This document shows positions 1,439-27,737 of a stretch of DNA of 32,000 nucleotides, piece after piece. Position 1 is the first letter of the stretch, and the number at the start of each line of letters is the position of its first letter. Under the pieces are notes generated by a model. It saw only the letters and a list, made by a program, of their open reading frames with translations, had not been told where the DNA came from and ran no database searches. A program made the position numbers and the translations under genes. This DNA is from Pyrodictium delaneyi (lineage in GTDB: Archaea > Thermoproteota > Thermoprotei_A > Sulfolobales > Pyrodictiaceae): assembly GCF_001412615.1 (NCBI RefSeq), contig NZ_CP013011.1, forward strand, positions 1,500,001 through 1,532,000. The letters run 5' to 3'.

Positions 1439-3898
1439 ATGCATCGCGTGCTCCTAGCTGTAGTCTTTATCCTCCTCTTGCCTAGTTACGCTGCACCCGC
1501 TCTCGCCCATGACAGTGCTGTAGTAGTTGAGGCTATCGTCGGCGAGGACGGCTGGGCGTTCATACATGCCCGGCTGCCGCCAGGAGAGTACCAGATAGTG
1601 GCTGTCGAGGGCTGGAAGCCTAGGCCCGTCAACCCGAAGCCACTACTCCTCAGCTTTACCCCGGATCCGGGGTTCTGGGAGAAGCTTAGAGGATTAGCAG
1701 TCGCTGCAACGTCTACAGTCTATGAGCCCAGAGTAGAACTCCTCGGCACGCCTAACGGTATAGAACTCTACGCGTGGGCTCCAGGCGAGCCTGGCTCCCG
1801 GGTTAGGGTGGTTCTTGAGAGGTTGGAAGCCGGAACGACCACTAGCGAGAAGAAAGGCATGCTCATAATCGTTCCTAATAACACGCTGGTGCTGAGCTAT
1901 GCAGAGAAGATAACTGAGCTGCATCACAGCCAAGGTCTAGACGTGGAGATAGTTACTACGGACGAGATCAGGAGGAGCTACAAGCCCGCAGATGAGCCAG
2001 AAGGGCTCTGTAAGCCTGGCAAGACCGGGCCCGAGTACGACGTTGACCTAGCCCGCCGCATCGTCTCCATGCTCCGCGAGGCCTACAGAGAGGGTGTACG
2101 ATACGTCCTCATAATAGGTGGTGCTAAGGACGTGCCACCGTTCTACTACTGTAGTCCAATCCTCTACGAGCTGGTAAACCCTGAAGAAGCTGCTGTTCCA
2201 ACAGACTACTTCTACGCCGACCCCGACTATGATGGACTCGTGGAATTAGCCGTAGGCCGTATACCCTTCAGTGACCCGGTAAAGCTCAGCACCTACGTCT
2301 CGGCATTAGAGAGCTGGATGAAGGGCGGGACCTGGCAGGAGAAAGCACTACTCGCCGGTGGAGCACCCTTCGCCACCAGCCTGCTAGTAGGCGAGGACGC
2401 TGTCATTAAGGCTATCATGAATATTGCTAGTCTAGATCTAGAGGTTGACACGCTACTTCTAACCATGGGCAACTACGCGGGAACACGCTTTACAAGCTAC
2501 ATAGGCGATTACGGGCTATACTACCTGGTGACGCACGGCGCTGGCAACGCGCTTCTAGACTACGTGCCGGGCGGGCTCTGGAACTACGACTTTGAGGAGA
2601 AGCTCCGTAGCATCGAGGTGCCGTACACTACACAGCCTGGAGTTTACCTCAGCCCTGCCTGCCGCGCCGGGTTCTGGGACTATGACCTAGTAGACCCCCC
2701 GTTCAAGCCCCCTAGCGTAGCAGTGTCGCTGCTGGAGCGAGGCGCTGCTGTAGCCTATCTCGGCTTCTCCCGCATAGCGATAGAGGTTATTGACGGGGTT
2801 ACTGCTGTCGATGGCAATGTTTACGCAAGCCTCGCTGCCGCTGACGCGGTGCTGATACTCTTCACGAAGAGTCTAGGCTCCGCGGAGACACTCGGCGATG
2901 CGTGGCTCTCAGCCCTCAACGCCTACTCGGTCATGCCCGCGAGTAGCTACCGCGCCTACCTGGTGAGGGGTCAGGAGGACATAGGCGAGCTAGTACTCCG
3001 CGAGGCTATATTCCTCGGCGACCCAGCAGCACCAAACCCATGGCGTAGGGTTACAATCACATCTACCGTAGAGCCGCCAGAGCTTGTACCCCCGCCAGGC
3101 AGCATAGATATAGGTGCATCTGTACTAGCTATGCCGCTAGCCCGTTACGCATCTGGTACTCTGCCCGCGTTTAACCCTGGTAATGCAACAACCATAACCA
3201 TAGACTTCGATGGCGTCTGCCCAGAGAAGGTCTATGCATGGTCGCTTTATCGAGTCTATGGCTACTATATGATAGGGCTTGAGCGTCTCTACGCTACTAT
3301 CGAGCAGAGCGGGGGCTGTACAGTCACGATAACACTGCCACAAGACTCGCCCGGCCTCATAAGGCTCCTAGCTCGCTGGGGCAATAACTACCTCACAACG
3401 TACTACATAATAGCTGCTGGAGCCTACCTCGATACAAGCACCGGGACGCTGGTAATAAGAGGACTTGATGTACTCGAAACCGTGGGTGACGAACCAATAC
3501 TGTTAACCGTCAACGGTGCAACAGCCTCCACTATACCTGGTGGTTCTACAAGCTACACCGTACCCTTACAAGCAATAGCACCATTGATGCCAGATAATAA
3601 TGCCATTGTATCGGTTACCCCTGTCTACCGGTTCGACAAAATATACGGTGGTAAATTCGTCGAAAACGAGCTGGAGAAGCTAGCTAAGCTCTTCACGGTC
3701 ACCGTACCCGCCGAGGATGCGGTAATTCTGCCCCCATTCTCTGTACAGTTCGCGGAGGGCAATACATCTTGCCCAACTCCAGCTGCCGGGAAAAAGCCGC
3801 TAACTGTTGGTGCCGACATCGTGGCATTCTTCGCTGCTATTGGACTGGTAGCAGCCCTAGCCATGGCTAAACGCCGCAGCTCTCCAGCTAGTCTCTAG
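1439..3898 (+). CDS. Secreted, C-terminally membrane-anchored protein with a peptidase C25 (gingipain)-like domain
   Basis: 819 aa. N-terminal signal peptide MHRVLLAVVFILLLPSYAAPALA. C25-like blocks: YVLIIGGAKDVPPFYY, PTDYFYADPDYDG..AVGRIPF, candidate catalytic His in YYLVTHGAGN and candidate Cys in YLSPACRAGFWD. C-terminal TM helix VAFFAAIGLVAALAMA followed by KRRSS. Confidence 0.55.
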   Translation: MHRVLLAVVFILLLPSYAAPALAHDSAVVVEAIVGEDGWAFIHARLPPGEYQIVAVEGWKPRPVNPKPLLLSFTPDPGFWEKLRGLAVAATSTVYEPRVELLGTPNGIELYAWAPGEPGSRVRVVLERLEAGTTTSEKKGMLIIVPNNTLVLSYAEKITELHHSQGLDVEIVTTDEIRRSYKPADEPEGLCKPGKTGPEYDVDLARRIVSMLREAYREGVRYVLIIGGAKDVPPFYYCSPILYELVNPEEAAVPTDYFYADPDYDGLVELAVGRIPFSDPVKLSTYVSALESWMKGGTWQEKALLAGGAPFATSLLVGEDAVIKAIMNIASLDLEVDTLLLTMGNYAGTRFTSYIGDYGLYYLVTHGAGNALLDYVPGGLWNYDFEEKLRSIEVPYTTQPGVYLSPACRAGFWDYDLVDPPFKPPSVAVSLLERGAAVAYLGFSRIAIEVIDGVTAVDGNVYASLAAADAVLILFTKSLGSAETLGDAWLSALNAYSVMPASSYRAYLVRGQEDIGELVLREAIFLGDPAAPNPWRRVTITSTVEPPELVPPPGSIDIGASVLAMPLARYASGTLPAFNPGNATTITIDFDGVCPEKVYAWSLYRVYGYYMIGLERLYATIEQSGGCTVTITLPQDSPGLIRLLARWGNNYLTTYYIIAAGAYLDTSTGTLVIRGLDVLETVGDEPILLTVNGATASTIPGGSTSYTVPLQAIAPLMPDNNAIVSVTPVYRFDKIYGGKFVENELEKLAKLFTVTVPAEDAVILPPFSVQFAEGNTSCPTPAAGKKPLTVGADIVAFFAAIGLVAALAMAKRRSSPASL

Positions 3899-5742: not shown

Positions 5743-5749
5743 TTTAAAT
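5743..5749 (+). promoter_or_regulatory. TATA-like box (TTTAAAT) upstream of ribK
   Basis: TTTAAAT lies 56-62 nt upstream of the ATG at 5805 and overlaps the ORF-track ATG at 5748. This argues that 5748 is not the true start. A GGGAGAG SD-like element lies at 5793-5799. Confidence 0.35.
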
Positions 5750-5804
5750 GTTGTCCTTAGTCGTGTCGGCATCCGGGATAACGAAACACGCCGGGAGAGC
5801 TGAC

Positions 5805-6245
5805 ATGCAAGCGAGGATTATCAAGGGCCGACGTGTAAAGGGTTTTGGCGTCGGTGCTTATTACATATCGCATCCCTATTATAGTGGATGGTTCAGTAAG
5901 TTACTGAGTTGCAAACCATTTCCAGGAACCCTAAATATTGAGACGGACATTGATTGGCGTGAACTAGCCGGGCTATGCGAGCCAATAGTAGTGCCAGAGA
6001 CGGAATGGGAAGGCAAACATCTCGGCGCAGTATATGTCTGGAGAGCCAAAGTGGAGACAAACCAGGGAACCGCAGATGTACTCGTTATACGCCCATTGTT
6101 AAGCAGTCACGAGCCTTCAGTGCTTGAGATCGTGGCATGTGAGAGACTATCCACACTACTCAAAGGAGATACAATCCGTGTAGAAGTCCTTTGCAGAGGC
6201 GGAGACAATGAAAGTAGGCCTAATACTAGCAGGGGGCGAGGGTAG
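5805..6245 (+). CDS. ribK: CTP-dependent riboflavin kinase (archaeal RibK, MJ0056 family)
   Basis: The ORF track gives 5748..6245. I prefer the ATG at 5805 ([17 protein letters not shown]...), which gives 146 aa, close to known archaeal RibK length as I recall it. The diagnostic block is PFPGTLNIE, plus GAYYIS..Y and a C-terminal beta-barrel-like region. Confidence 0.75.
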
Positions 6246-6993
6246 ACGTTTTGGCGGAGACAAGCTCATCGCTTTAACTGACGGTAGGCCCGCAATTGCA
6301 CGGATTAGTGATGTTCTTCAAGCAGCTGGCGCAGAGCTTGTATATGTTGCAACACGGGAAGAGCAACGCTGTAAGATATACACGGATATCGCTAATTTAG
6401 ATGGCTGCATATATGACCCAGACTGGCTTGCATGTGGAGGACCAGCAGCTGCCTTAACGGGATTAGAGTCCCTTCAAGCCCGTGTACTACTAGTAACTCC
6501 AGGAGATATGCCATGGATAACACCAGACGTATTGATTAGACTAGAGGCCTTTATGGAACAGACCAAGGCCGAGGCTGCACTACCAATGCATAGTGGCGGT
6601 TTTCTTGAGACACTAGTAGCCACAATACGTTGGAGCCTTGTGGAAAGATTACCGAAGATACTTGTTCAGCTTTGCAATTTACGAGGAGAACTGAGAGCTA
6701 GTGATCCTTATCGAGCTTCAACGAGACTTACACTTGTTGGCTCGGGACTCCTTACATGGAATCCGATAGTATTTTCCCACATTAATACCCGCGAGCGCCT
6801 ACAAACCCGTGAACCAAAGAATAACCTTGGACCGAAAGACATACTGATTACGGAGCCCCATTTAGATCCATTTGCGCCAAGAGACCAACTATGTCTTAGG
6901 CTAGCACGAGAAAGAAACGAATATCACAAGCTTGGGATAATTCACTTGGAAAGACAGGCATGGAAGGACTTTCTTATGCTTTGTAAACAGTGA
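6208..6993 (+). CDS. mobA: Molybdenum cofactor guanylyltransferase (MobA) with a C-terminal extension
   Basis: N-terminal [20 protein letters not shown] matches the LAGGxxxRxGxDK nucleotide-binding signature. PGDMPWI matches the MobA DxP-type block. It overlaps ribK by 38 nt. At 261 aa it is about 60 aa longer than typical MobA. Confidence 0.75.
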
Positions 6994-7238: not shown

Positions 7239-10200
7239 ATGCCGCCACAACGTAAAAGCAAGCCCGATTTGAATAGACGCTCGTTCCTCAAAGCAACAAC
7301 ATTGATGACTGCACTGGCTATGCTGCCAAGCAGTGCTAGAAGAGCACTTGGCTATACTCCGCCAAAGGAGTATATGCTCGGCGAGATAGGCAATAAGAGT
7401 CTCTATGAGACAGTTGAAATCCGCGGTGTATGCACATACTGTAGCGTTGGTTGCGGAATCATATTCTACAAGCAAGCCAATAAGGTAGTGTACCAGGAAG
7501 GCGATCCAGACAATCCTCTTAACGAGGGCAAGCTCTGTATAAAAGGCAAAGCTTCCATACAGCTGTTCGGCGCCCACAATCCTCTACGTGCCCGTACACC
7601 CCTTATCCGCGTAAATCCCAAGCCCAAGCCCGAGGAGATACTAGAAGCCAGGGACTCCAACGAGCTCATGAAGGTCCTGGAGAAGTATAAGCCAGTCTGG
7701 AAGCCTGTAACCTGGGAAGAGGCCTTCGAATACGTAATGAAGAAGATGAGAGAGATTCTCGAAGCCAATGCTGATGCTGTTAGAGTATACCACCCCTATG
7801 ACGGTAAGATATGTGATAGCAGGAAGGGCTGCTACTTCCGCTTCGGCAACAAGTACCCTGTAATGATAATAGCCGGCGCAAAGATGCTCAACGAGGAAGC
7901 ATACCTCATAAGGAAGATATCAATGCTTATAGGATGCAACAACATAGACCATGATGCGCGGCGTTGTCACTCCACTACAGTGGCCGGCCTAGCTGGCACA
8001 GTTGGCTTCGGCGCACAGACCCAGAGCTTCCCCGACACCCAGTATATCAGCGTCTACCTCATCCTGGGCGGGAACCCTGCCGAGGCCCACCCCGTCTCAA
8101 TGAGGCACGTCATGAAGGGCATCAACCGCGGCACACTAACACTAGTAGTGGTGGACCCGAAGTATGGGCGCACTGCATCCAAGGCCCATATATTCGCATT
8201 CCACCGCCCCGGCACAGACATACCCATAATGTACTACATCCTACACTACGCGTTCTTCGAGCGCAACCCGCCGGTAGACCGGCTCGACACCTTCCGCGAG
8301 TACGCTAAGAGGTTCAACATAGACATAGCTGAGATCGAGGAGATAAAGGACATAGCCAAGAGGTTCACTGCCGAAGAGGTCTCGAGGATAACTGGTGTAC
8401 CGGTCGAGAAGCTTCGCGAGATAGCCCGGCTCTTCGTCGAGAACAGCGGAGTAACCACCGGGTTCAAGAGGTTCGCCTCGATAGAGTGGGCTATGGGGCT
8501 CACTCAGCACCACGTAGGCACACAGAATACCCGCCTCGCCGCCCTGGTTCAGCTAGTCCTGGGCAATCTAGGCTTCCCAGGAGGCGGCCTCAACCCCTAC
8601 CGTGGTCACAGTAATGTGCAAGGCACAACTGACCTATGTATACTAAGCCACATATTCCCAGGCTACATCAAGATCCCGACCAATAGTAAGCAGATCCGCG
8701 CCTACCAGGAGTGGAAGCTGAAGGGCTTCCCCGACGCCTTCAACTGGCGCCCCAGCATGAACACTTGTAAGGCGCTCGGCCTGAAGTGCAGCGATTGCGA
8801 CGATAACGGCGACAACTGCAAGCTAACAGTAAACAGTGGGGCGCTACTCTGGGCATGGTGGTTCATGAACTGGCGCCGCTACGAGCTAGCCATGGGTATC
8901 TTCGTCGGCACGGATCCCGAGGATAAGCCGTGGGACGAGAACAGCGTCGTGATAAGCGATCTACCATTCAACAAGGGCTACACCGAGAACAACTGGTGGA
9001 TGGGCGTATTACTGCCCGACGACCCGAGGACAAAGAAGATCGGCGGAAAGATAGAGGCCATGTGGCTGTTCGGCGAGAACATAGCCATTAGCGACGCTGA
9101 CTCTAAGATAACCATGGCGGCTCTCGCAGCGCTAAAACTCCTAGTAGTGTCCGACATATTCATAACAGAGACCGCATGGTTCGCCGATGTATTCCTCCCG
9201 GCCGCGTTCCAGTACGAGAAGGAGGGCAGCATAACTAACAGCAACCGCTGGATACAGTGGCAGCACCGCGTGGTAGAGCCACCCGGCGATGCCAGGGCAG
9301 ACCTATGGGTGATGTACAAGTTCTGGGACTACATGAGGCGTAGTGGCCTAGTAAAGCTGCCGAGCGAGGAGTACGGTAAGAAGATCGAGCGTGTAGTAGT
9401 GAAGCACCCCGAGGCCGATACGCTGGTCGAGCTCTACCGGAGGAAGATAGAGCCCTACATGAACTATGGCAGCGGTAGATTCCCGTGGACCGACTACCGG
9501 GAAGTAGACCCGGTGCTCGTCTACAAGGAGATCGATGCTGCTGTAGACCTCTACTATGGCCAGTACGACTGGGCCCACGACAAGATACTAGCCATGAGGA
9601 GGATATCCGCGCCACGTGTACCCGGCCAGCCTGACGGTCTGCTCGACAGTGGCACCCTCGAGCACCCTGGCGGGAAGGCCCCGCTGAGGCTCTTCAAGGA
9701 CTGGGGCTGGAGCTGGCCCAGGAACGTCAGGATACTCTACAACCTGTACACATTGGAGAAGACATTCGGCCGCAAGGACAGCTTCACCTTTGAGCCAGGC
9801 AAATGGACCGTAGGCCCAGAGCTAGACGGCAAGACCGTGGAGATCACTGGCGAGGCCGGCGAAATGATAGATGCTAAAACAAAGATGCCTAGACCGGCCT
9901 TCATACCGGGCCACAACTTCGTGATAGGCAAGTACTATAAGCGCGCCTGGACATGCCTCACAGAGAAGTGCAGCCAGAAGACCACGGCCGACATATTCAC
10001 TGGCGCTGCCTACGCCGAAGACATGATACGCTACGGCAAGACCGTCGGCAAGATAGTGTTCTGGAAGCCTGGCGGCGGCTACGAGATAAAGACTGTCGAG
10101 GAGCTCGACATAAGGTGTCCGATGTGCGAGAGCTTCTACTATGACCCCGAGCTGATACTAGACTACGGCAAGGCCGTGTTCTATAAGCCGTACTTCAAGG

Positions 10201-11033
10201 GCACCAAGACCATTAACGGAAAGACGATAGTCTACAAGGACTGGAAGGAATGGCGCCCGGTGCACGACAAGTTCGTAAAAGAATTCACAGCCTGCATTGG
10301 AGGCAATCCTGAGAACTACAAGAAGTGTGTCAAGGAGTTCCTAGACAAGTATGGCGAGTGGTATGCTATAACTGGACCTGACGGCAAGGTATGGGCCTAT
10401 AGTATCGACTACCCGTTCCACTTCGAGCCAGTTGAAAGCCCGAGCATAGAGATGGCAACCAAGTACCCAGCACTAGCCTGGAGGAGGATAGAGAACCTGT
10501 TCTACATAGAGCCACCAGAGCAGATGCCGGAACTATACAAGGCCGTGGTAGCGACCTATGAAGAGCTGAAGAAGTACGCGCCTAGCGATGCAGAAGTGGT
10601 AGTGGTTACCGAGAACCGTCTTGAGGAGCACTTCCACACCGGTATCATGACGCGCAACGTGCCGTACCTTGCCGAGACGCTGCCAGAGCCCTTCGCAGAG
10701 ATCCCAGTCGAGCTAGCCGAAAAGCTGGGTATAAAGAGTGGCGACATAGTAGAGCTGGGCAACAATAGGAACAAGATCTACGTGCGAGCACTGGTAACAC
10801 ACCGCATGCCTAAGCTGAGGATAGGCAACAAGGAGGTCTACGTGATCAACGTGCCGTGGAGCTGGGGTTGGAGCGGCGCCCACAACAGCTTCGACGTAGC
10901 CAACACGATATCAATACTAGTAATGGACATAGTTACTACGATGCAGGAGACGAAGGCGTTCCTAGCATGGGTGAAGAAGGCCAGCCCAGACAAGTACACT
11001 TACCAGGCTAAACCCCGCATACAAGTGTTCTAA
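7239..11033 (+). CDS. fdnG: Formate dehydrogenase-N-type molybdopterin catalytic subunit (Cys-type, Tat-exported), unusually long at 1264 aa
   Basis: Twin-arginine motif NRRSFLK (7272-7292). [4Fe-4S] motif CTYCSVGCG...CIKGK. Active-site block IDHDARRCHSTTVAGL aligns with E. coli FdnG VDNQARVUHGPTVASL, with Cys243 (TGT, 7965-7967) in place of Sec, followed by His244. Further matching blocks: GGNPAEAHP, VVDPKYGRTAS, GLTQHHVGTQN, NPYRGHSNVQGTTD (catalytic Arg), EKEGSITNSNRWIQW and ENRLEEHFHTG. Confidence 0.9.
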   Translation: MPPQRKSKPDLNRRSFLKATTLMTALAMLPSSARRALGYTPPKEYMLGEIGNKSLYETVEIRGVCTYCSVGCGIIFYKQANKVVYQEGDPDNPLNEGKLCIKGKASIQLFGAHNPLRARTPLIRVNPKPKPEEILEARDSNELMKVLEKYKPVWKPVTWEEAFEYVMKKMREILEANADAVRVYHPYDGKICDSRKGCYFRFGNKYPVMIIAGAKMLNEEAYLIRKISMLIGCNNIDHDARRCHSTTVAGLAGTVGFGAQTQSFPDTQYISVYLILGGNPAEAHPVSMRHVMKGINRGTLTLVVVDPKYGRTASKAHIFAFHRPGTDIPIMYYILHYAFFERNPPVDRLDTFREYAKRFNIDIAEIEEIKDIAKRFTAEEVSRITGVPVEKLREIARLFVENSGVTTGFKRFASIEWAMGLTQHHVGTQNTRLAALVQLVLGNLGFPGGGLNPYRGHSNVQGTTDLCILSHIFPGYIKIPTNSKQIRAYQEWKLKGFPDAFNWRPSMNTCKALGLKCSDCDDNGDNCKLTVNSGALLWAWWFMNWRRYELAMGIFVGTDPEDKPWDENSVVISDLPFNKGYTENNWWMGVLLPDDPRTKKIGGKIEAMWLFGENIAISDADSKITMAALAALKLLVVSDIFITETAWFADVFLPAAFQYEKEGSITNSNRWIQWQHRVVEPPGDARADLWVMYKFWDYMRRSGLVKLPSEEYGKKIERVVVKHPEADTLVELYRRKIEPYMNYGSGRFPWTDYREVDPVLVYKEIDAAVDLYYGQYDWAHDKILAMRRISAPRVPGQPDGLLDSGTLEHPGGKAPLRLFKDWGWSWPRNVRILYNLYTLEKTFGRKDSFTFEPGKWTVGPELDGKTVEITGEAGEMIDAKTKMPRPAFIPGHNFVIGKYYKRAWTCLTEKCSQKTTADIFTGAAYAEDMIRYGKTVGKIVFWKPGGGYEIKTVEELDIRCPMCESFYYDPELILDYGKAVFYKPYFKGTKTINGKTIVYKDWKEWRPVHDKFVKEFTACIGGNPENYKKCVKEFLDKYGEWYAITGPDGKVWAYSIDYPFHFEPVESPSIEMATKYPALAWRRIENLFYIEPPEQMPELYKAVVATYEELKKYAPSDAEVVVVTENRLEEHFHTGIMTRNVPYLAETLPEPFAEIPVELAEKLGIKSGDIVELGNNRNKIYVRALVTHRMPKLRIGNKEVYVINVPWSWGWSGAHNSFDVANTISILVMDIVTTMQETKAFLAWVKKASPDKYTYQAKPRIQVF

Positions 11034-11068: not shown

Positions 11069-11863
11069 ATGACCGAGTACGGGATAGTATTCAACCTCGA
11101 TACATGTATAGGTTGCAGGGCATGCCAGACAGCGTGTAAGGTCTGGAACGGGCTGAAAGCTGAAGAGACTAGCTTCAACCCTGAGGGCTACACCAACCCA
11201 GTAGACCTATCGCCGAACACCTGGATGATAATGGAGTTCCTAGAGGGGTTGATGGGCGATTCACCATTCTGGCTCTTCAAGAAGCGCCAGTGCATGCACT
11301 GTAGCGAGGCACCTTGCGCCAAGGCGTGCCCGGTCAACGCCATAGAGGTGCATCCCGAGGGCGCCGTGGTAATCCGTCCCGACAAGTGCATAGGTTGCCG
11401 CTACTGTATCGAGGCCTGCCCCTACGATGTGCCACGCTACGACCCGATATCGAACAAGGTATACAAGTGTACATTCTGTATCGACCGTGTACAGAATGGC
11501 CTCGCACCCGCATGTGTCGAGGCCTGCCCAACTGATGCACTAGAGTTCGGCCCCTGGGAGGAACTGCTCCAGAAGTACCGCGCCGCCGGCTACGAGGTGT
11601 ACGGAGACAACGTTAACGATTACGTCGGACGCACTCACTACCTCTACGTGACGAGGAAGTTCCGGAACTTTGGAGCCGAGGAGGGCAAGAAGTGGTACGA
11701 GGCTATTGGCTTCCCAGAAAACCCGACAGGAGCACTACCACTCATTGAAGCCGGACGCAACGTTGGTGTAGGTCTTGCAGCGCTAGCAGCTGTAGGTGCA
11801 GTAGCTCACGCCATCTACTGGAGGGCTAAGAGGATCGAGGAGAGGAACAAGACCGAGAAATGA
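11069..11863 (+). CDS. fdnH: Formate dehydrogenase iron-sulfur (beta) subunit, four [4Fe-4S] motifs and a C-terminal TM anchor
   Basis: Cys motifs CIGCRACQTAC, CMHCSEAPCAKACP, CIGCRYCIEACP and CTFCIDR...ACVEACP. C-terminal helix VGVGLAALAAVGAVAHAIYW. SD GGTGATC lies at 11058-11064. Confidence 0.88.
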   Translation: MTEYGIVFNLDTCIGCRACQTACKVWNGLKAEETSFNPEGYTNPVDLSPNTWMIMEFLEGLMGDSPFWLFKKRQCMHCSEAPCAKACPVNAIEVHPEGAVVIRPDKCIGCRYCIEACPYDVPRYDPISNKVYKCTFCIDRVQNGLAPACVEACPTDALEFGPWEELLQKYRAAGYEVYGDNVNDYVGRTHYLYVTRKFRNFGAEEGKKWYEAIGFPENPTGALPLIEAGRNVGVGLAALAAVGAVAHAIYWRAKRIEERNKTEK

Positions 11864-11900: not shown

Positions 11901-12629
11901 ATGGGTAAGGAGGTTAAACTCTTCAGTGAACTAGAGATATGGGCACATAAACACGCTATACACTTCGCAGCCGCCCTAATACTAACGGGGCTGATAGTCT
12001 CCGCCAACAGCCTGCCAGACCCCCTAGGAGGGTTCTTCGAGTGGCTAGCATATACACTAGGTACACCAGCATCCTACTTTGCTGAAGCCCTCGGGCTTTC
12101 ACCGCTCGAGCAGAGCTATAGCGCCTATAGCCTCGGTGTACAAGTAGCTAGGATAGTCCACCGGCTCGCAGGAATAGGAATGGCGTTCATAGGCCTAGTG
12201 TGGCTCCTAGGCGAGCTACCACGGGCTAGGAAGTGGCAGATATGGCCCGAAGGCGGTCTAGGAGCTGCCGTCAAGAATCTGATAGACTACTATGTAGGAA
12301 AGAAGGAACCACGGTTCGGCAAGTATAACCTCGGCCAGAAACTGTGGATAATAGGTGTAGTCGTTGGCTTTACGCTACTCTTCATAACAGGCATAATAAT
12401 GTGGTTCCGCGACAGTTTCAGCCAAAGCGTGGTAAACACTGCTCATACGCTACACACATGGCTAGCATGGATAAGTATTGCTGGACTAATAATCCACATA
12501 TATCTCGCCATAGGAATACCAGAGCATAGGCCAATGCTGAGAGCCATGTTCCGCACCGGTACTGCACCAGAAGAGTTTGTGAAGAAGCATCACCCATTAT
12601 ACTATGAGAAAATAAGAAGCGAAGACTAA
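11901..12629 (+). CDS. fdnI: Formate dehydrogenase cytochrome b (gamma) membrane subunit
   Basis: 242 aa with 4-5 predicted TM helices. Conserved-looking His are at helix ends (HKHAIHF, RIVHRL, HTLHTW, IIHIYL), as in the FdnI/cytochrome b561 family. SD GGGGGTG lies at 11887-11893. The gene position after fdnH also fits. Confidence 0.8.
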   Translation: MGKEVKLFSELEIWAHKHAIHFAAALILTGLIVSANSLPDPLGGFFEWLAYTLGTPASYFAEALGLSPLEQSYSAYSLGVQVARIVHRLAGIGMAFIGLVWLLGELPRARKWQIWPEGGLGAAVKNLIDYYVGKKEPRFGKYNLGQKLWIIGVVVGFTLLFITGIIMWFRDSFSQSVVNTAHTLHTWLAWISIAGLIIHIYLAIGIPEHRPMLRAMFRTGTAPEEFVKKHHPLYYEKIRSED

Positions 12630-12741: not shown

Positions 12742-13575
12742 ATGGAGATGGTACTAGACATGACTGCAGGGGAAGTTACACCAGGCGCAGATGCCACTAA
12801 AGAATGTAGTCTAGCCACAACGCTTGTAGCAGGACTACGCATAGCAGCAGACTACAAGTACATAATAGAGGTTGACGACAAATACGTCGGCTCTATACAC
12901 ACGAGCCCGAACTACTTGGCTGACGCCATAGCAGGGCTAGCTCTACGCGATGGATTGGCTACCCTAGGCGATCATGTAGAGCTTGTCGAGGTCAAGCCGT
13001 TAGGCGATATGAGCTTCCTAGTTAGGGCTCGACTTGTCAGGGCTATGGCTACGAGCCTTCCCGATGAGAGACCGCTCGACTGGAACGTCATAGAAAGAGT
13101 CTATCGTGACCTGATAAGGTCTGTGCCTAAGGCTCAATGCCCCTTCGCCGTACACACTGTGGCCGTATACGGGATACCTCAAGACGGTGAACCGCGGAGG
13201 TTGATACTCGTCAGTGATGTCAGCCGCCATAGTGCAGTGCTGAAGGCTGCAGGTATGCTCTCGAGACTTGCTAGCTCTGGGAAACTACGTGGTCTTGCAT
13301 TGCTCGCTGTCTCCACAGGGAGGATATCCGGCGACGCTGTAGAGGCTCTGGCAAGGGCTGGAGTCCGGGTCATAGTTGCCAATCATCATCCGTTGTTGAG
13401 TGGCCTTGCAGCCGCTCTTCGCCATGGTGTTGCACTGGTGCTGCGTAGGCCCGATAGCCGAGGCCTCGCAGTCTACACGTCGCCGGAACTGGTAGTTAAT
13501 GCGCCCCTAGTGTTGTCGGTTAAGGAGGCAGGAGAGCCACCTTCTTATGCTGCCTCTATACTGCCGGTGTGCTGA
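12742..13575 (+). CDS. fdhD: FdhD-like formate dehydrogenase accessory protein (divergent; lacks the CxxC sulfur-relay loop)
   Basis: 277 aa. Blocks align by eye with E. coli FdhD: HTSPNYLADAIAGLALRDGL with ASPKDLEYFALGFSLSEGI; CPFAVHTVAVY with GCTHAAAWM; DVSRHSAVLKAAG with DVGRHVALDKLLG; STGRISGDAVEALARAGVRVIVA with [22 protein letters not shown]. Confidence 0.7.
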   Translation: MEMVLDMTAGEVTPGADATKECSLATTLVAGLRIAADYKYIIEVDDKYVGSIHTSPNYLADAIAGLALRDGLATLGDHVELVEVKPLGDMSFLVRARLVRAMATSLPDERPLDWNVIERVYRDLIRSVPKAQCPFAVHTVAVYGIPQDGEPRRLILVSDVSRHSAVLKAAGMLSRLASSGKLRGLALLAVSTGRISGDAVEALARAGVRVIVANHHPLLSGLAAALRHGVALVLRRPDSRGLAVYTSPELVVNAPLVLSVKEAGEPPSYAASILPVC

Positions 13576-13727: not shown

Positions 13728-14666
13728 GTGAGGTTTCGTGTTATGGGTAGTGGGAAGCACGTACTTCTGCGCGACAGATTTCCCGAGATAAGAAGTTGGC
13801 TCGGGAAATTCTCTGAAGAGGACAAGAGGAACGAATCTTCTTACCGCATACTGGAGGCCCTATACGAGGTCCAGGCACGTATAGAGGAGGAGGCTCTGCG
13901 CCGCCTGGAGGAGGCTGGACTAATTGAGGAAGTAGCTAAGGCAGCACGGAAGATAGCATTTCAACGCGTACCTCTCATCATAATTCTTGGTGGTCTCCCT
14001 AAACCGCTTATGGATGAAGAATTTCTGCGCCGCTCGATGCTCGATATAATAGACGCTGTAGCAAGGGAGGGCTACAGTCTCAAAGGTGCTACAGCTTCCC
14101 TCCGCGATCCAGTGGAGAAGGCAGCATTAAGTATCTCTCAGCTCGTTGAAGAGCTATTGGAAGGTCGAGAAGATAGTATCCATGCATGGGCAGGCGCTGT
14201 CTCAGCTGACCGGGACCGTGTTCGGGCGCTGGCCCTTTGGTTAATCCAGCCCTTGCTTAGTGCACTACGCGTAGCTGCTAGCAACGCATTAGGTTGGGTT
14301 CGGGAATACTGGCAGCAAGGTCTTTGTCCAGTCTGTGGTTCTGTCACACGCGTCGGGTACATGAAGGGGGAAGGGAGGAAGCAGTTCCTCCGTTGCCAGG
14401 TCTGCGGAATGGAGTGGGTCTTTCCCCGCGCTCGATGTCCCTATTGTGGCACGGACAAGCCAGGCGATGTGGTATTCTATCAACCTCTGGAGTCTAGGCA
14501 ATGGTTACGGCTTTACTATTGCCGCCATTGCGGAGCCTACTGGAAGATAGTAGATGAGGAGGATGAAGCCGCCGCCAAGAGCGGGCTACCACCAAGAGAA
14601 CTTTACGACGTCTATACTTTTATCCTCGACTCTGTAGCCGAGGCAATGACCTCCAAGAGGCAGTAG
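13728..14666 (+). CDS. fdhE: FdhE formate dehydrogenase maturation protein (four CxxC rubredoxin-like knuckles)
   Basis: C-terminal region GLCPVCGS...FLRCQVCGMEW...RARCPYCG...YYCRHCGAYWK matches the FdhE pattern CPVCGS..RYL.C.LC..EW...R.KC..C......C..C..Y.K. A GTG is at 13728 and an ATG at 13743. Confidence 0.85.
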   Translation: MRFRVMGSGKHVLLRDRFPEIRSWLGKFSEEDKRNESSYRILEALYEVQARIEEEALRRLEEAGLIEEVAKAARKIAFQRVPLIIILGGLPKPLMDEEFLRRSMLDIIDAVAREGYSLKGATASLRDPVEKAALSISQLVEELLEGREDSIHAWAGAVSADRDRVRALALWLIQPLLSALRVAASNALGWVREYWQQGLCPVCGSVTRVGYMKGEGRKQFLRCQVCGMEWVFPRARCPYCGTDKPGDVVFYQPLESRQWLRLYYCRHCGAYWKIVDEEDEAAAKSGLPPRELYDVYTFILDSVAEAMTSKRQ

Positions 14667-14804: not shown

Positions 14805-15437
14805 TTGACAAGGTGCTCGGAGATAACGAGCAGAGGCAGTAAGAGCGATAGCAGGAGGAGAGTCTCGTTGCCGCTCCCAGGACTCTTGAATGCTGTAGCA
14901 TATGCGCCTAGACACCGTGACGAACTCTTGGGGATGTTAGAAGAGACTACGAATAAGATTGTAGAAGTAATGAAGACCACTATGCCACAGCATGCTATCA
15001 ACCTCTACACAATGTTAGCATCAGCCAAGGCATTGCCCGTAGCAGTAAAGGGAGGCCCGCCGCCGCTAAACCCGCTACAGTATGCCGACTTTGCTGCCGA
15101 TATCATAGCCCGGTTAGAGTCTACTGGTTTTTACGAGGAAGCTAGGCCCCTTCGACGCGCCCTCATGTCGGGAAAGCTACCCGTCTACGATCTTGCCCGT
15201 GGCTACTTGCTCGGAGACTTAGACTTTATAGTCTCGGTGTCAAGGGAGCTTGGTGCCGCCGAGTGGATTGTCGCATTCCTCGCCGCAGCAGTAGCTGCAG
15301 GCGCTGCCAGGGCTATACGGGCCGTGCTAGAATCTGATAGGAGCCTGCCGGCTCTAGGCCAGGATGCTACGTGCCCTGTGTGTGGTAGATCCTTGGAGAA
15401 TGGACGTTGTAGTTTCTGTCTCTACGCACAGAGGTAG
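14805..15437 (+). CDS. Hypothetical protein with a C-terminal CPVCG...CSFC zinc-ribbon; possible truncated FdhE-like paralogue
   Basis: The ORF-track start is TTG. A more plausible ATG at 14934 (MLEETTNKIV...) gives 167 aa. The body is helical and Ala-rich, ending in ATCPVCGRSLENGRCSFC. It follows fdhE on the same strand. Confidence 0.45.
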   Translation: MTRCSEITSRGSKSDSRRRVSLPLPGLLNAVAYAPRHRDELLGMLEETTNKIVEVMKTTMPQHAINLYTMLASAKALPVAVKGGPPPLNPLQYADFAADIIARLESTGFYEEARPLRRALMSGKLPVYDLARGYLLGDLDFIVSVSRELGAAEWIVAFLAAAVAAGAARAIRAVLESDRSLPALGQDATCPVCGRSLENGRCSFCLYAQR

Positions 15438-20290: not shown

Positions 20291-21469
20291 CTATTGATCT
20301 GCCCGCCGACGAGCTAGTTGACGTAAGTTCTCTAGACGTTCGCGCCCAGTACGTTCATCAACTACTATAACGCGCTCCATGCATGATATGCAGGGATCAA
20401 GACTTGCTAGTATGACCGGTATATCCGCCAATGTGGCACCTTGGTAGGCTACGAGACTGTTCAGTATGTTGGGGATACTCGGCGTCCTTATCTTTACTCT
20501 ATAAGGCTTAGTGCCGCCCCGACTAACAACATGGTATAGGAGTTCACCACGTGGAGCCTCAACTCGTGATATTGCCTCACCCTCACGGAACCGGCGAGGC
20601 GGAGTCTTCAGACTGTTAATTGGACCGCTTGGCAGTTTTTCTAGCACTTGACGTATAATGTTTATAGACTCTAACGCCTCCTCGAACCGGACCAGCATAC
20701 GGGCGAGTGCATCGCCCTCACTACGTCTAATTACTTGGAAGTCTAGCTCCCCGTACCAAGCATAAGGATCATCGCGTCTGACATCGATATCTACGCCGGA
20801 GCCACGAGCTGTTGGCCCGACAAGTCCATGACTTACGGCCACACTGTACGGTATTACCCCTATGCCTTCAAGCCTACGGCGGAGCAACCTATCGCTTGTA
20901 TAGACTTCCATATAGTATTTTATCCGCTGTTCGAGAATATCCATGCTACGTCTTATCTTCTCTGCTACTTCAGGACTTAGGTCTCGACGAACGCCTCCTG
21001 GCCATACATAATCGGCTATGACTCGGTTTCCTGTGAGCAGCTCCTTTAGGTGCATTACCTTCTCGCGATCCCTCATTATCAGCATGAAGAGGCTCTCAAA
21101 TCCAGCTATCTCTGCAACCACGGCTGCTAGGAGCATGTGACTATGAAGCCTCTCGAGCTCCATTGCTAGGACTCGGAGAGCTTGAGCGCGAGGCGGCGGC
21201 TCGATACCATTTATCTCTTCGATGGCCTGGACATAGCAGTTAGAATGCATCATGTTGCATATACCGCAGACACGTGTCACTATATAGAGGGTTTTTAGGA
21301 ACGTATTGCTCTCAGCGAGCTTCTCTATCCCACGATGGTTATAGCCCGTAACTACCTCTACCCCGACTACGTCTTCACCGTCAACGCGTACACGGAGCAT
21401 AATGGGTTCGTGTAGTGCAGGATGCTGAGGCCCAATAGACACTTCTATTACCGGCATCCCCGTTATCAC
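20291..21469 (-). CDS. nuoD: Group-4 [NiFe]-hydrogenase large subunit (NuoD/MbhL/EchE-like) with an intact Ni-Fe ligand set
   Basis: L1 motif RVCGICNMMH (Cys68 at 21268-21266, Cys71 at 21259-21257). L2 motif DPCISCMER (Cys360 at 20392-20390, Cys363 at 20383-20381). A 26-aa tail VIVVDERTG... follows it. Also GPQHPALHEP and EAPRGEL blocks. GTGA overlap with the upstream gene. Confidence 0.9.
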   Translation of the reverse strand: MITGMPVIEVSIGPQHPALHEPIMLRVRVDGEDVVGVEVVTGYNHRGIEKLAESNTFLKTLYIVTRVCGICNMMHSNCYVQAIEEINGIEPPPRAQALRVLAMELERLHSHMLLAAVVAEIAGFESLFMLIMRDREKVMHLKELLTGNRVIADYVWPGGVRRDLSPEVAEKIRRSMDILEQRIKYYMEVYTSDRLLRRRLEGIGVIPYSVAVSHGLVGPTARGSGVDIDVRRDDPYAWYGELDFQVIRRSEGDALARMLVRFEEALESINIIRQVLEKLPSGPINSLKTPPRRFREGEAISRVEAPRGELLYHVVSRGGTKPYRVKIRTPSIPNILNSLVAYQGATLADIPVILASLDPCISCMERVIVVDERTGRERLENLRQLARRRADQ

Positions 21470-21906
21470 CTCTTATTCCAGTCCTTGCGTAACGGATATT
21501 CTCCAGCTACATCTGGCGGTGTGAAGAACCCTAAGCGGAGACTCTCATTACCCTCAAAGACTACGCCAAAGAGGTCGTAGACCTCTTGTTCATAGGGCAC
21601 TGCAGCGGGGAGTAACAGTGCCAAGCTTGGTGCTCTTGGCTGGCTTCGCGGTACCCGCGTCTTTAGCGTGAGTAGGCTCTTCTCCGGGATAATCCAGAAC
21701 ACATAGTCTAGCTCTATACTGTCCTCTTCAGGGAGATCTATGGCAGTTATCGCTGAGAGGTAAACTCCACGAGGGTAGGCCTCTAGCAAGCTTTTAACTA
21801 CTCCTGGCAGTTTCCAGGGATCATCAATACGTACTTCTAGACGTCGTTGCTTCTTTTCCACAATCTCTACTTTACTGTTCTTCAGCCACAGTTTTAGCTG
21901 CTTCAA
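21466..21906 (-). CDS. nuoC: NuoC/MbhK-like 30-kDa-type subunit
   Basis: 146 aa. YEQEVYDLFGVVFEGN and a R(K)DW-type C-terminus (YPLRKDW) are typical of NuoC/HycE-N/MbhK. It sits between the small and large subunits. Confidence 0.8.
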   Translation of the reverse strand: MKQLKLWLKNSKVEIVEKKQRRLEVRIDDPWKLPGVVKSLLEAYPRGVYLSAITAIDLPEEDSIELDYVFWIIPEKSLLTLKTRVPRSQPRAPSLALLLPAAVPYEQEVYDLFGVVFEGNESLRLGFFTPPDVAGEYPLRKDWNKR

Positions 21907-22405
21907 TTCTGTCAGCCTCCTCTCGGATACTCTTAAGGAGCCTAACTATGGCCTGGAGTATCGCGTCAGGACGCGGCGGGCATCCGGGAATATAGAGATC
22001 CACCGGCACGACGTTGTCGGCTCCACCAACTACACTGTAGCTATTGCGGAACACATTGCCAGAGATAGCACATGTACCAACTGCAACCACGTGTTTTGGG
22101 TCAGGTGTCTGTTCGTAGAGACGACGAAGTCTCTCAGCAGACTTCTTGGTTAGTGCACCCGTCACAATGATTATGTCGGCATGCCGAGGGTTCGGGGCCA
22201 GTCTTATACCGAAGCGTTCTGGATCGTAGAGGGGTGTTAGGGCCGCAAGAACCTCTATGTCACAGCCGTTGCATGCGCCGGTGTTAAAGTGGAGTAACCA
22301 GGGTGAACGTGAGAGCATTCTTAAGGTGAAAGAACTCCCACGATGCTTCACATTTTGCAAGGGGATATACGCCTCCGCCAAATAGAGTATATAGCTACGA
22401 AACAT
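21872..22405 (-). CDS. nuoB: Group-4 hydrogenase small subunit (NuoB/MbhJ-like), [4Fe-4S] N2-type cluster
   Basis: FNTGACNGCDIE (hydrogenase-type CxxC rather than the complex-I CC), GTCAISG and IPGCPPRP. The start is either 22405 (a TATA-like box lies ~32 nt upstream) or the internal ATG at 22318 (MLSRSPWLLHFNTG). Confidence 0.85.
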   Translation of the reverse strand: MFRSYILYLAEAYIPLQNVKHRGSSFTLRMLSRSPWLLHFNTGACNGCDIEVLAALTPLYDPERFGIRLAPNPRHADIIIVTGALTKKSAERLRRLYEQTPDPKHVVAVGTCAISGNVFRNSYSVVGGADNVVPVDLYIPGCPPRPDAILQAIVRLLKSIREEADRIEAAKTVAEEQ

Positions 22406-22436
22406 AGTTGATTAGGGTTACCCCGTAGAAGCCGGG

Positions 22437-22444
22437 ATAAAGAA
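22437..22444 (-). promoter_or_regulatory. TATA-like element (TTCTTTAT on the minus strand) in the 74-nt gap between the membrane-arm genes and the B-C-D-I module
   Basis: This is the only sizeable gap inside the 11-gene cluster. The T/A element sits about 32 nt upstream of the ATG at 22405, which fits a short-leader internal promoter. Confidence 0.25.
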
Positions 22445-22479
22445 CCCGCTGCCACAGCATACACGATTACACACCCCCG

Positions 22480-23880
22480 CTAGCGGATTAGACTGACTAT
22501 ACTGTCCACGATGGGGCCCGGCAATACACCTAGAGCTATTGCGGCCGCTGCTAGGATGAGGAGTGGTACAAGAAGCCTAGACGGAGCCTCAGAAGGCAGT
22601 GTACGAGGAACCGTTACCGACGGATGCCAGAATACTCGTAGCCAGAACCTAAGCGCATAGGCTGCAGAGGATAATACAGCAAGTGCTAGCGCAGCGACTG
22701 CTGCTATGCCGTAGACCCGCCCTACCCCTAGGACTATGAGTAGCTCACCTGGGAACATTGCAAAGGGCGGTGCCCCGGCCAGACTCATGGCTGCTACGAA
22801 GGCTGCGAAGGCTGTGACGGGCATGCTGCGGGCGAAAACTCCCATGCTGCGTATGTCGTCGCTTCCGCTCTGCTTCTCGAGCACTCCTGCTACGAGGAAG
22901 AAGAGGGGCTTTACGATGCCGTGTGCCAGGGCTGCTAGTACTCCACCAGCGGCCGCCAGGGGATGGCCAGCGGCAAGCCCGGCGTAGATTATGCCGGAGT
23001 GCCCAATGCTGCTGTAGGAGGCTATGAAGCCTAACCGGTTAGCTGAGAGGGCTCGGAGGGCTCCCACTATTGCCGAGGTTATGCCCAGCCACATCGCGGC
23101 CTCTAGCATGGCTGTGGTTTGGTGGGGCCAGTGGAATCCTGTCGTGAACCTGTACATTCCGTAGGCGCCGATGCTTGTGACCACGCCTGCGAGTAAGCCT
23201 GCCGCGAATGGGGGCACTGAGGTGTAGGTACGTGGGAGCCATGTGTGGAATGGGAAGACACCGAGTTTTATTGCAAAAGCTATAAGTGCCAATGGTAGCG
23301 CTATTGTTGATAGGCTAGCATCCACGACATTGCCTCCGAAGACCGGGGCATTGGCTGCTAGTAGGGCGCCTACCGCTACGAGAAGTAGCAGGGAGCCTGC
23401 ATGCATGTATATGAAGAATTCTGGGGCTCTTCTAGGGCTCCAGAGCCAAACTAGCACCGTGGACACTATGAGTACTAGTTCCCAGAACACATAGAAGAGC
23501 GGCAAGCTATAGGCGTAGACGAGCCCAATAACCGAAGCATGTATAGCAGTTACAACTATCTCAAAGACTGCCTCCCCTCCTCTACATGTTACGCCAGCTC
23601 TGCCTGCATATACTATGACTGTTATCGCTACTAGGGCAGAGAGGGCTGCGAAGAGCTTCGAGACAGTGTCTAGCCCCATACACACTGGAGCGTTGACGAC
23701 AGCTAACCATGAACGACATACAGCGTCGCCGTTGGCAAGCAGCGTAATAATAGCGGACACTGTTATCGAGATTATTGAGGCTGCCCTCCTACCAGCTAGG
23801 ACTGCTGCAGCACCTAATCCAAGCACTATTAGCGACGTCGCATACGCTACTGGTACGCCGAGCACGTTAGCCACCTCCAA
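22480..23880 (-). CDS. nuoN: Antiporter-like subunit (NuoN/NuoM/MrpD family)
   Basis: 466 aa, about 14 TM helices. FAIKLGVFPFHTWLPRTY matches the K..g..P.H.WLPdA signature. It overlaps the upstream gene by 14 nt. Confidence 0.8.
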   Translation of the reverse strand: MEVANVLGVPVAYATSLIVLGLGAAAVLAGRRAASIISITVSAIITLLANGDAVCRSWLAVVNAPVCMGLDTVSKLFAALSALVAITVIVYAGRAGVTCRGGEAVFEIVVTAIHASVIGLVYAYSLPLFYVFWELVLIVSTVLVWLWSPRRAPEFFIYMHAGSLLLLVAVGALLAANAPVFGGNVVDASLSTIALPLALIAFAIKLGVFPFHTWLPRTYTSVPPFAAGLLAGVVTSIGAYGMYRFTTGFHWPHQTTAMLEAAMWLGITSAIVGALRALSANRLGFIASYSSIGHSGIIYAGLAAGHPLAAAGGVLAALAHGIVKPLFFLVAGVLEKQSGSDDIRSMGVFARSMPVTAFAAFVAAMSLAGAPPFAMFPGELLIVLGVGRVYGIAAVAALALAVLSSAAYALRFWLRVFWHPSVTVPRTLPSEAPSRLLVPLLILAAAAIALGVLPGPIVDSIVSLIR

Positions 23881-25168: not shown

Positions 25169-25170
25169 GG

Positions 25171-27018: not shown

Positions 27019-27021
27019 AGT

Positions 27022-27315
27022 CTACCCCCTTAGTTCGTCTAACTCGTCCACACTCCTAGCCCCATGGAGCCTTGAGGCGCGGAGGGCGAGCGCAGCTGCT
27101 AGGGCCATTATACCGGTGTCGAGAACTAGTATGAAGAGGTAGAAGCCTAGGCTACCACCCCACATGGCGAGGGATGCTGCTGCAGAAGCCGACACAAGTT
27201 CGAGGCCGACCAGTACGCGGAGAAAGTTAGAGTACCGAGTGAGCATGTAGAGGCCTGCAGAGGCTATAGCTGCTAGTGCTATTGAGTAGAATATGCTAGT
27301 CTCCACCGTCTTCAC
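27022..27315 (-). CDS. nuoK: NuoK-like small membrane subunit
   Basis: 97 aa with three TM helices. LVGLELVSASAAASLA resembles the NuoK L.slEim.na block with its membrane Glu. It sits between the J-like and L-like genes. Confidence 0.7.
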   Translation of the reverse strand: MKTVETSIFYSIALAAIASAGLYMLTRYSNFLRVLVGLELVSASAAASLAMWGGSLGFYLFILVLDTGIMALAAALALRASRLHGARSVDELDELRG

Positions 27316-27730
27316 CTCCCGCCACGACTCTTAACGCTAGCAACACTGAGGCTAGCGGAGCAGATGCCAGGGCTACTGCTAGAGGAGCCCATTCCTCTGC
27401 ACTGAGCTCCCGGGGCTGCTGTATATGAGAGCCAGCGATGGCTAGGGCTACGAGCACCACGAGTGCACCTATAGCCCCCATACCCGGGACGACGCCCCGC
27501 TTCGAGCCGCCCAACTCGGGAGCCAGGAAGCCTGCAGCTGCTAGAAACCCGGCTGCGAGTGAGAGCTGTACAACGGCTGCAACAACTTCGCCCATATCAA
27601 TAAACATTAACGCGAGGAGCACCAGAGCTGCGGTGGAGGAGAGTAACACTCGCTCGTCTCGCCCCGTGGTGGCAGCATAGAACGCCGCTACAGCCGCCGC
27701 AGCTGCTAGTACTCCTGCGAAGATACTCAC
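27296..27730 (-). CDS. nuoJ: NuoJ-like membrane subunit
   Basis: 144 aa and hydrophobic. GEVVAAVVQLSLAAGFL loosely matches the NuoJ F.a..Q..vY.GA block. The call rests largely on the canonical H-J-K-L gene order. Confidence 0.55.
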   Translation of the reverse strand: MSIFAGVLAAAAAVAAFYAATTGRDERVLLSSTAALVLLALMFIDMGEVVAAVVQLSLAAGFLAAAGFLAPELGGSKRGVVPGMGAIGALVVLVALAIAGSHIQQPRELSAEEWAPLAVALASAPLASVLLALRVVAGGEDGGD

Positions 27731-27737
27731 TCTGTTA

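Follow-up and report, generated by a model that had tools for sequence, protein, structure and literature searches.

The 32,000-nucleotide window analyzed here (Pyrodictium delaneyi contig NZ_CP013011.1, positions 1,500,001 to 1,532,000; all positions below are counted within it) carries, at 7239-11033 on the forward strand, the gene Pyrde_1511 for an oversized molybdopterin-dependent oxidoreductase. Its product represents a known kind of enzyme in lineage-specific form, the catalytic subunit of formate dehydrogenase (FDH) of the FDH-N type. Taking our explanation as a whole, we think it holds a somewhat better than even chance of being right that the protein belongs to a membrane-anchored complex (alpha, four-cluster beta and cytochrome b gamma) exported by the twin-arginine translocation (Tat) pathway and using cysteine as metal ligand, that its 249 extra residues are surface additions peculiar to one Thermoproteota lineage, and that its extra cysteines form short-range disulfide staples that stabilize loops. 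In such a complex formate would be oxidized at the outer face of the membrane and the electrons would pass through five [4Fe-4S] clusters and heme b to menaquinone, while an ordered alpha/beta insertion of ~160 residues between the WPxN and HxEPxESP blocks would pack on the core without providing cofactor ligands. In the hottest-growing branch, that of the Pyrodictiaceae and Ignicoccus-like organisms, the surface loops would have gained up to six short-range cysteine pairs, with staples at 192-198, 510-517, 520-527, 906-911, 960-963 and 1019-1030 rigidifying loops, a hairpin and a helix-helix turn. Annotations of the gene exist, and its product was detected by proteomics; the fold-orphan insertion is undescribed so far.

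The reading frame comprises 1264 codons without an internal stop. An exact-sequence look-up returned ALL01554.1 (UniRef A0A0P0N5I7) from P. delaneyi Su06, which Table S1 of PMC8105010 equates with Pyrde_1511, the next two genes being Pyrde_1512 and Pyrde_1513; the alpha subunit of strain Hulk (OWJ54545.1) is identical in sequence. GenBank names the protein "formate dehydrogenase alpha subunit" and RefSeq just "molybdopterin-dependent oxidoreductase". The initial annotation, made from the letters alone, had described a Cys-type, FdnG-like protein of 1264 residues exported by Tat, and the reading frame, the Pfam domains and the NRRSFLK signal agree with it; the match to the Tat-signal family PF10518 is weak (E 0.0013, under the Pfam gathering score). 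The features of the gene are the following.

7239-11033, forward strand: FdnG-like catalytic alpha subunit, 1264 residues, Pyrde_1511, with Pfam domains PF04879, PF00384 and PF01568
7239-7352, forward strand: Tat signal peptide, residues 1-38, with NRRSFLK at residues 12-18, read from the sequence
7431-7538, forward strand: [4Fe-4S] ligands C65, C68, C72 and C100, then Lys102 (PF04879, E 6e-16)
7812-7832, forward strand: cysteine pair C192/C198 (CDSRKGC), beside a 13-residue insertion at 179-191, from alignment
7965-7970, forward strand: Mo/W ligand Cys243 (TGT) and His244 (CAC), aligned with the selenocysteine-histidine (Sec-His) of 1h0h and 9qm0
8598-8624, forward strand: YRGHSNVQG with the catalytic Arg455, from alignment; R455 and Q461 invariant
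8766-8819, forward strand: four-Cys loop, C510-x6-C517-x2-C520-x6-C527, inside a 22-residue insertion at 510-531
9744-10394, forward strand: large clade-specific insertion, residues ~836-1052, its novel part at ~900-1052, from alignments and BLASTP
10983-11030, forward strand: 16-residue C-terminal extension, residues 1249-1264, from alignment

The catalytic core ties the protein to the formate dehydrogenases. Its [4Fe-4S] ligands and Lys102 are invariant in 116 of 116 homologs and the same in E. coli FdnG. In alignments C243-H244 superposes on U196-H197 of E. coli FdnG, and likewise on the Sec-His of FdhF, and HMMER alignments to solved structures match it to the Sec-His of the Desulfovibrio gigas tungsten FDH (W-FDH) and of D. 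vulgaris FdhA, while the counterpart of YRGHSNVQG in E. coli FdnG is LRGHSNIQG. Both the codons and these alignments thus agree with the intact Cys243-His244-Arg triad, with TGT as the cysteine codon, that the initial annotation had reported. Conservation extends to the surrounding shell, for which we chose the first- and second-shell positions probed in D. vulgaris FdhAB (DvFdhAB) and FdnG: K102, C243, H244, S245, V248, M419, Q423, H424, R455 and Q461 do not vary among the 67 members of the clade to which the protein belongs. These residues agree with E. coli FdnG and/or other FDH-like proteins; at positions 245 and 419 E. coli FdnG has G and L, and the other FDH-like proteins S and M.

Similarity searches point the same way. 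The best 24 matches among PDB sequences are all FDHs (E 6e-93 to 8e-52), with periplasmic nitrate reductase (Nap) next at 7e-41, and the top NCBIfam model is TIGR01553 (FDH-N alpha) at 428 bits, against ~180 for Nap models and 105 for PhsA. An AlphaFold2 (AF2) model of residues 56-1252 was obtained with a mean predicted local distance difference test score (pLDDT) of 94.7 and a predicted template-modeling score (pTM) of 0.94, and Foldseek searches with it returned DvFdhAB, 1kqf and 1h0h as best matches (E 1e-62 to 1e-64, Nap 1e-43). In a neighbor-joining tree (772 columns, without support values) the clade branches within the FDH-like sequences, with FdnG nearer to it than FdhF, and NapA and DmsA fall outside. 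A position outside the FDH clade, the outcome that the initial annotation had named as damaging to its proposal, was therefore found neither in the sequence and fold searches nor in this unsupported tree. NapA was rejected as an identity because NapA has C-M and TGQPSACG where this protein has C-H and RGHSNVQG; it is also contradicted by Nap-model scores of ~180 bits against cut-offs above 900 and by the lack of a napD-like or napB-like gene in the operon. PhsA and ArrA were rejected by motifs and scores.

The genes around Pyrde_1511 extend the resemblance to E. coli FdnGHI (PDB 1KQF) beyond the Tat signal, the cluster motif with its lysine, the Sec/Cys-His dyad and RGHSN(V/I)QG to a three-subunit build and to the accessory genes fdhD and fdhE. 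The cluster reads mobA–fdnG–fdnH–fdnI–fdhD–fdhE, all on the forward strand, with the following members besides the alpha gene.

6208-6993, forward strand: MobA-like nucleotidyltransferase, 261 residues, directly upstream of alpha (PF12804 NTP_transf_3, E 9e-26)
11069-11863, forward strand: FdnH-like beta subunit, 264 residues, Pyrde_1512 (PF13247, E 1e-28)
11901-12629, forward strand: FdnI-like gamma subunit, cytochrome b anchor, Pyrde_1513 (PF01292, E 1e-13)
12742-13575, forward strand: FdhD-like sulfurtransferase and cofactor chaperone (PF02634, E 5e-13)
13728-14666, forward strand: FdhE-like protein with four CxxC pairs (PF24859 FdhE_central, E 1e-6)

The beta subunit is 38.7% identical to E. 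coli FdnH (E 1e-55), has 16 cysteines, sufficient for four [4Fe-4S] clusters, and ends in a membrane anchor at residues 231-251; the gamma subunit, with four hydrophobic helices, shares 24.9% identity with FdnI (E 2e-10). Both look like FDH-N partner subunits, gamma at the level of family and overall identity. The MobA-like protein is probably the guanylyltransferase for the bis-molybdopterin guanine dinucleotide cofactor. At the orthologous loci of I. pacificus (Ignicoccus) and P. neutrophilum (Pyrobaculum) the alpha-beta-cytochrome b order is retained, with FdhD nearby. We therefore favor, from the invariant catalytic shell and the presence of fdhD and fdhE in the operon, a genuine formate:quinone oxidoreductase that is induced during iron respiration, with formate as its likely substrate; the predicted fold likewise favors a true FDH-N-type enzyme. 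The description of the strain Hulk cluster as a formate dehydrogenase and the growth of that strain on formate (PMC5556600) fit this assignment, Hulk being the strain with the identical alpha protein.

The FDH assignment has been disputed in print, a matter that the initial annotation did not take up, and several observations weigh against it. Type strain Su06 is reported to be unable to grow on formate, and Kashyap & Holden (PMC8105010) assayed extracts of P. delaneyi Su06 for benzyl-viologen FDH activity without detecting any. The same study found Pyrde_1511-1513 to be 50-100-fold more abundant on ferrihydrite than on nitrate (log2 fold changes of 6.0, 6.4 and 11.4, the last for the cytochrome b), placed the protein in a separate clade of its tree, "MoOR 2", and proposed a ferric reductase. 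The genome paper on I. hospitalis describes a possibly related complex, Igni_1377-1380, that resembles both Nap and FDH, for which extracts showed no FDH activity and no function could be demonstrated. On our own side, the protein misses the equivalog cut-offs of the NCBIfam FDH models (TIGR01553, 428 against the trusted cut-off of 814 bits; TIGR01591, 395 against 666; NF041513, 389 against 1400), its match to these models being broken into four to five stretches by insertions, and our family placement tree is weak in being a simple neighbor-joining tree without support values.

Much of this evidence would suit the complex being a molybdopterin-dependent terminal reductase for Fe(III) oxide respiration, the "Frc" of Kashyap & Holden 2021, fed by the quinol pool and adapted by its insertion to a new substrate or partner. 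We consider this unlikely. The activity table in PMC8105010 refers to nitrate-grown extracts, in which the complex is 50 to >1000-fold scarcer, and a negative FDH result from cells that scarcely express the enzyme is weak. All FDH-specific catalytic and second-shell residues are invariant, FdhD and FdhE are FDH-specific maturation factors, and both the searches and the unsupported tree put the clade within the FDH radiation; the insertion, for its part, has no conserved Cys or His to hold a redox cofactor that could take electrons outward. An insoluble oxide would also be a poor match for the active site of this enzyme family, which lies buried, with its bis-pyranopterin guanine dinucleotide cofactor, at the end of a narrow funnel. 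Which substrate the enzyme uses matters for hyperthermophilic iron respiration and for formate use at hydrothermal vents.

Among FDH-N-type subunits the protein stands out from E. coli FdnG by its size, E. coli FdnG having 1015 residues, 249 fewer. As the initial annotation had seen, the two proteins align block by block, and BLASTP resolves three colinear blocks at residues 10-491, 603-835 and 1044-1248 (32%, 25% and 30% identity), leaving unaligned residues 492-602 (111 residues against 63 in E. coli) and 836-1043 (208 against 45). An alignment-based map places a 22-residue insertion exactly at 510-531, the four-Cys loop, for which the span 8766-8819 given earlier runs precisely from the C510 to the C527 codon, and insertions of 16, 24, 14 and 114 residues between 847 and 1052. 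These last sum to 168 where about 150 additional residues ahead of the FEPVESP block had been estimated. The proposal that the excess falls mainly in these two places was roughly right: both places are real, but they hold only ~190 of ~348 inserted residues (~55%), offset by ~108 deleted residues. About a dozen smaller insertions are present too, including 129-150, 179-191, 797-817 and the C-terminal tail, which is found in Pyrodictiaceae/Ignicoccus-type proteins and is absent or shorter in the Pyrobaculum type and in E. coli.

The large insertion turned out to be a common trait of a Thermoproteota clade and not a peculiarity of the P. delaneyi protein, which the initial annotation had missed. 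All homologs of 1130-1290 residues have 183-237 residues in a segment where E. coli has 68, and they come from Pyrodictium, Hyperthermus, Ignicoccus, Korarchaeota-labeled metagenome-assembled genomes (MAGs), Pyrobaculum, Thermoproteus, Thermofilum, Infirmifilum, Acidilobaceae, Sulfolobales MAGs and Caldiarchaeum. The segment can be aligned across the whole clade, with common motifs TGETGExxD, RPAFIPGHNF, KR, DLFxG, YxD and WY. Even the ~1170-residue "formate dehydrogenase alpha" proteins of the Pyrobaculum/Thermoproteus/Thermofilum type (e.g., P0041, P. neutrophilum), at 38-40% identity over 98% of the length, carry a homologous insertion, with 183-193 residues in that segment.

Outside this clade we found no relatives of the insertion, the boundaries of which are defined by this work. 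A profile of residues 900-1052 matched only the Thermoproteota clade among 120 retrieved homologs, with no match to haloarchaeal, bathyarchaeal or bacterial homologs or to E. coli FdnG, and homology to the insert (~155 residues) of haloarchaeal FDH-like proteins or to the 1204-residue bathyarchaeal proteins was rejected on this ground. Among 1.84 billion representative proteins the profile recovered a pair of clade representatives plus two truncated members of their family, three other matches being tandem-repeat artifacts, so that a widespread or stand-alone domain was also rejected. A scan of genome contigs yielded a single locus, from a Pyrodictiaceae MAG. The insertion has no Pfam match at E up to 10, no PDB profile match below E 0.05 and no fold match by Foldseek (best E 0.69, TM ≤0.14), and the phylogenies of the dimethyl sulfoxide (DMSO) reductase family in PMC7331816 and PMC10100899 are silent on the clade and its insertion. 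Haloarchaeal FDH-like proteins (P0083, P0086, P0090, P0095 and others) carry an unrelated insert of ~150-200 residues at the identical site, which marks the WPxN–HxEPxESP segment as a hot spot where insertions recur among archaeal enzymes of the FDH-like kind.

Disordered linkers, considered at the outset as a possible outcome, are not what the modeling returned. In the context of the AF2 model the large insertion is a confidently ordered, mixed alpha/beta elaboration (pLDDT 92-97); folded alone it reaches a pLDDT of 82 and a pTM of 0.54, and this drop suggests that it leans on the core and does not fold as an independent unit. The insertion, with a mildly basic pI of ~8.6, is aromatic-rich and carries three cysteine pairs, 906/911, 960/963 and 1019/1030. 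One could imagine it as a functional module for docking, an idea of the initial annotation, or for gating, one that couples an FDH-like core to a different partner or reaction, for instance for electron delivery to Fe(III) respiration, at which the proteomics of ferrihydrite-grown cells hints, or for controlling the active-site funnel by redox state or cations. If so, the crenarchaeal FDH-N-like complexes, in which searches for formate activity have failed repeatedly, would form a functionally new branch of the DMSO reductase superfamily; we regard this reading, with the candidates named for it, as improbable, and prefer that of a surface elaboration.

The second peculiarity of the protein is its cysteines. 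There are 19, in agreement with every position noted initially and with the addition of C192, C198, C233 and C467. Twelve of the 14 non-cofactor cysteines have a partner within 11 residues, an arrangement that none of 20,000 random placements reached, and the clustering is therefore not due to chance. They form six local, mutually independent pairs, 192/198, 510/517, 520/527, 906/911, 960/963 and 1019/1030. Conservation of the ten insert cysteines in orthologs, which the initial annotation had asked about, holds among close Pyrodictiaceae but fails beyond them: the cysteines are complete in 8 Pyrodictiaceae-type sequences (≥80% identity), patchy in 18 at 49-65%, and nil in 41 of the Pyrobaculum type, so that at ~40% identity they are absent while the insertion itself is kept. 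Pyrobaculum-type proteins, with none of the twelve paired cysteines, also lack C467, the four-Cys loop, the CLTEKC loop and the C-terminal tail. The number of pairs climbs stepwise from zero in these proteins to six in the Pyrodictiaceae, with partial sets in P0010, P0013 and P0023.

It is the manner of this turnover that favors disulfide staples over a Zn ribbon or an Fe-S site. On the tree the state of 960/963 changes at least five times, that of 520/527 three times and those of 906/911 and 1019/1030 twice each, and both members nearly always change together, orphan states being found in 2 of 180 pair-by-sequence cells; C192 and C198 are both present in 13 sequences, both absent in 17 and never orphaned. 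Where a pair is missing, its place is taken by complementary residues (Y..A, L..A, F..A or G..G), unless the small loop is missing altogether. That pairs arise and vanish independently of one another and give way to residues such as Y..A and L..A is the pattern to be expected of local staples, with which the secondary structure of the AF2 model is also compatible: C510 lies in a short helix beside the strand of C517, C520 and C527 flank a hairpin loop (pLDDT ~95 across the helix and hairpin of the four-Cys loop), and C1019 and C1030 sit on consecutive helices. Within the four-Cys loop we propose two consecutive disulfides, probably 510-517 and 520-527, since the alternative 510-527/517-520 is less parsimonious in leaving two orphans in P0010 where our pairing leaves none. 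Stabilizing disulfides were one of the three functions suggested initially, and appear to be the best of them.

This proposal would fit with the protein disulfides in which Crenarchaea are reported to be universally rich (Jorda & Yeates 2011, PMC3177088). As in that survey, the cysteines here occur in local pairs the number of which rises in the hottest-growing lineage; unlike the mostly cytosolic proteins surveyed there, the present one, with its putative disulfides, is a cofactor-loaded Tat substrate that ends outside the membrane. Two considerations argue against them. In a strict anaerobe with H2 exposed disulfides could stay reduced, and in the Pyrodictiaceae Zn could still be a ligand partner of the CxxC that C517-S-D-C520 forms inside the symmetric motif of four cysteines.

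An extra metal site, a Zn ribbon or an Fe-S cluster, was among the functions suggested initially for these cysteines. In that general form we reject it, as the cysteines are not conserved as a set of ligands and turn over pair by pair, and the insertion shows no fold or sequence match to a metal-binding domain. A complete set of metal ligands wherever the insertion occurs was not found: the insertion is in 67 of 67 members, with the cysteines absent in 41 and patchy in 18. Nor can C906/C911 and C960/C963 form a single four-Cys site, for each pair is found without the other in several lineages. A narrower version, in which C510, C517, C520 and C527, perhaps with other pairs, bind structural Zn(Cys)4 or rubredoxin-like Fe in the Pyrodictiaceae, draws on the compact C-x6-C-x2-C-x6-C symmetry with its internal CxxC, strict conservation in 8 of 8 Pyrodictiaceae sequences and 10 others, the acidic adjoining residues (DCDDNGDNC) and the anaerobic life of the organism. 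It too seems improbable to us. P0010 has only C510 and C517 and P0013 lacks C517, Ignicoccus-type sequences have a C-x6-C-x1-C-x5-C spacing in which C-x1-C replaces C-x2-C, and Korarchaeota-like and Pyrobaculum-like members have no such loop at all; 520/527 is lost as a unit, independently of 510/517, the independent 906/911 and 960/963 do not make one site, and there is no similarity to a Zn ribbon or ferredoxin fold.

The best sequence and structure matches of the protein raise a different possibility. The periplasmic W-FDHs of Desulfovibrio (D. gigas, 1H0H; D. vulgaris FdhAB, 6SDR/8CM4; E 6e-93, Foldseek 5e-64) share its active-site shell (S, V, M, Q), although they are soluble alpha-beta enzymes with Sec, without cytochrome b and without a large insertion, and with C845-C872 of DvFdhAB they offer an earlier case of a periplasmic FDH that has a functional disulfide. 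With this disulfide formed DvFdhAB loses ~90% of its kcat (PMC11134731). One or more of the pairs described here might similarly serve as a regulatory redox switch that keeps activity low until reduced, which, if true, could also explain the negative activity assays; the large insertion does fall in the same inter-block segment as C845 (D. vulgaris residues 807-864, corresponding to 865-1107 here), and Met405 of the D. vulgaris switch corresponds to the invariant M419. We think this very improbable nonetheless. The Desulfovibrio disulfide positions are not conserved, as the protein has no cysteine homologous to C845 or C872 and none at all after residue 1030 (D. vulgaris 865-1005 being 1108-1248 here), and a DvFdhAB-type switch at the homologous cysteines was rejected for this reason. 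All six pairs are short-range, from i to i+3 up to i+11, and lie on lineage-specific loops that are dispensable in most of the clade, a pattern of stabilization and not of a conserved allosteric device. If staples they are, a single enzyme family in which their number goes stepwise from zero to six pairs offers a case study in disulfide acquisition and could serve the engineering of thermostable, Sec-free catalysts of CO2/formate conversion.

Two further features of the cysteines may be recorded. The acidic loop at residues 518-527 (SDCDDNGDNC; 8790-8819), closed by C520/C527, contains D519-x-D521-x-N523-G524, which resembles a calcium-binding loop of the DxDxDG type; the orthologous loops are acidic as well (CDEKGDNC, CDENGDNC, CSEDGSYC), but the exact D-x-D-x-N-G motif is not kept. 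Cys467 (DLCILSH; 8637-8639) is an unpaired core cysteine just past the catalytic arginine motif, invariant in 26 of 26 Pyrodictiaceae/Ignicoccus/Korarchaeota-type sequences and replaced by Q or H in 41 of 41 of the Pyrobaculum type.

Elsewhere in the window, a 210-residue unannotated frame just 3' of the FdhE-like gene (14805-15437, forward strand) has no Pfam match, one hydrophobic segment (~149-175) and a C-terminal CPVCG...CSFC motif, and may encode a further FDH accessory protein; an Ignicoccus locus (L006, 12140-12637) encodes a 165-residue protein with a faint Zn-ribbon match between cytochrome b and FdhD. Upstream, a gene for CTP-dependent riboflavin kinase (5748-6245, forward strand) shares 38 nucleotides with the MobA-like gene, whose product extends C-terminally past its domain match (residues 4-151). 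Type III RuBisCO (10-1347) and an 819-residue Peptidase_C25 (gingipain-like) protein (1439-3898) follow one another on the same strand near the start of the window. On the reverse strand, 20291-29014 holds a Nuo/Mrp-like membrane complex cluster with a 49-kDa/NiFe-hydrogenase-like subunit, three antiporter-like subunits and a NuoH-like subunit; no NuoEFG-type genes were noticed among the frames scanned there, and two Nuo clusters are described for strain Hulk (PMC5556600), of which this is probably one. Finally, immediately upstream of the P. neutrophilum ortholog (locus L007, 658-4614) lies a gene for a 1318-residue protein with only a Molydop_binding match and with its own cytochrome b and small ferredoxin-like genes, which may represent another divergent molybdoenzyme complex.

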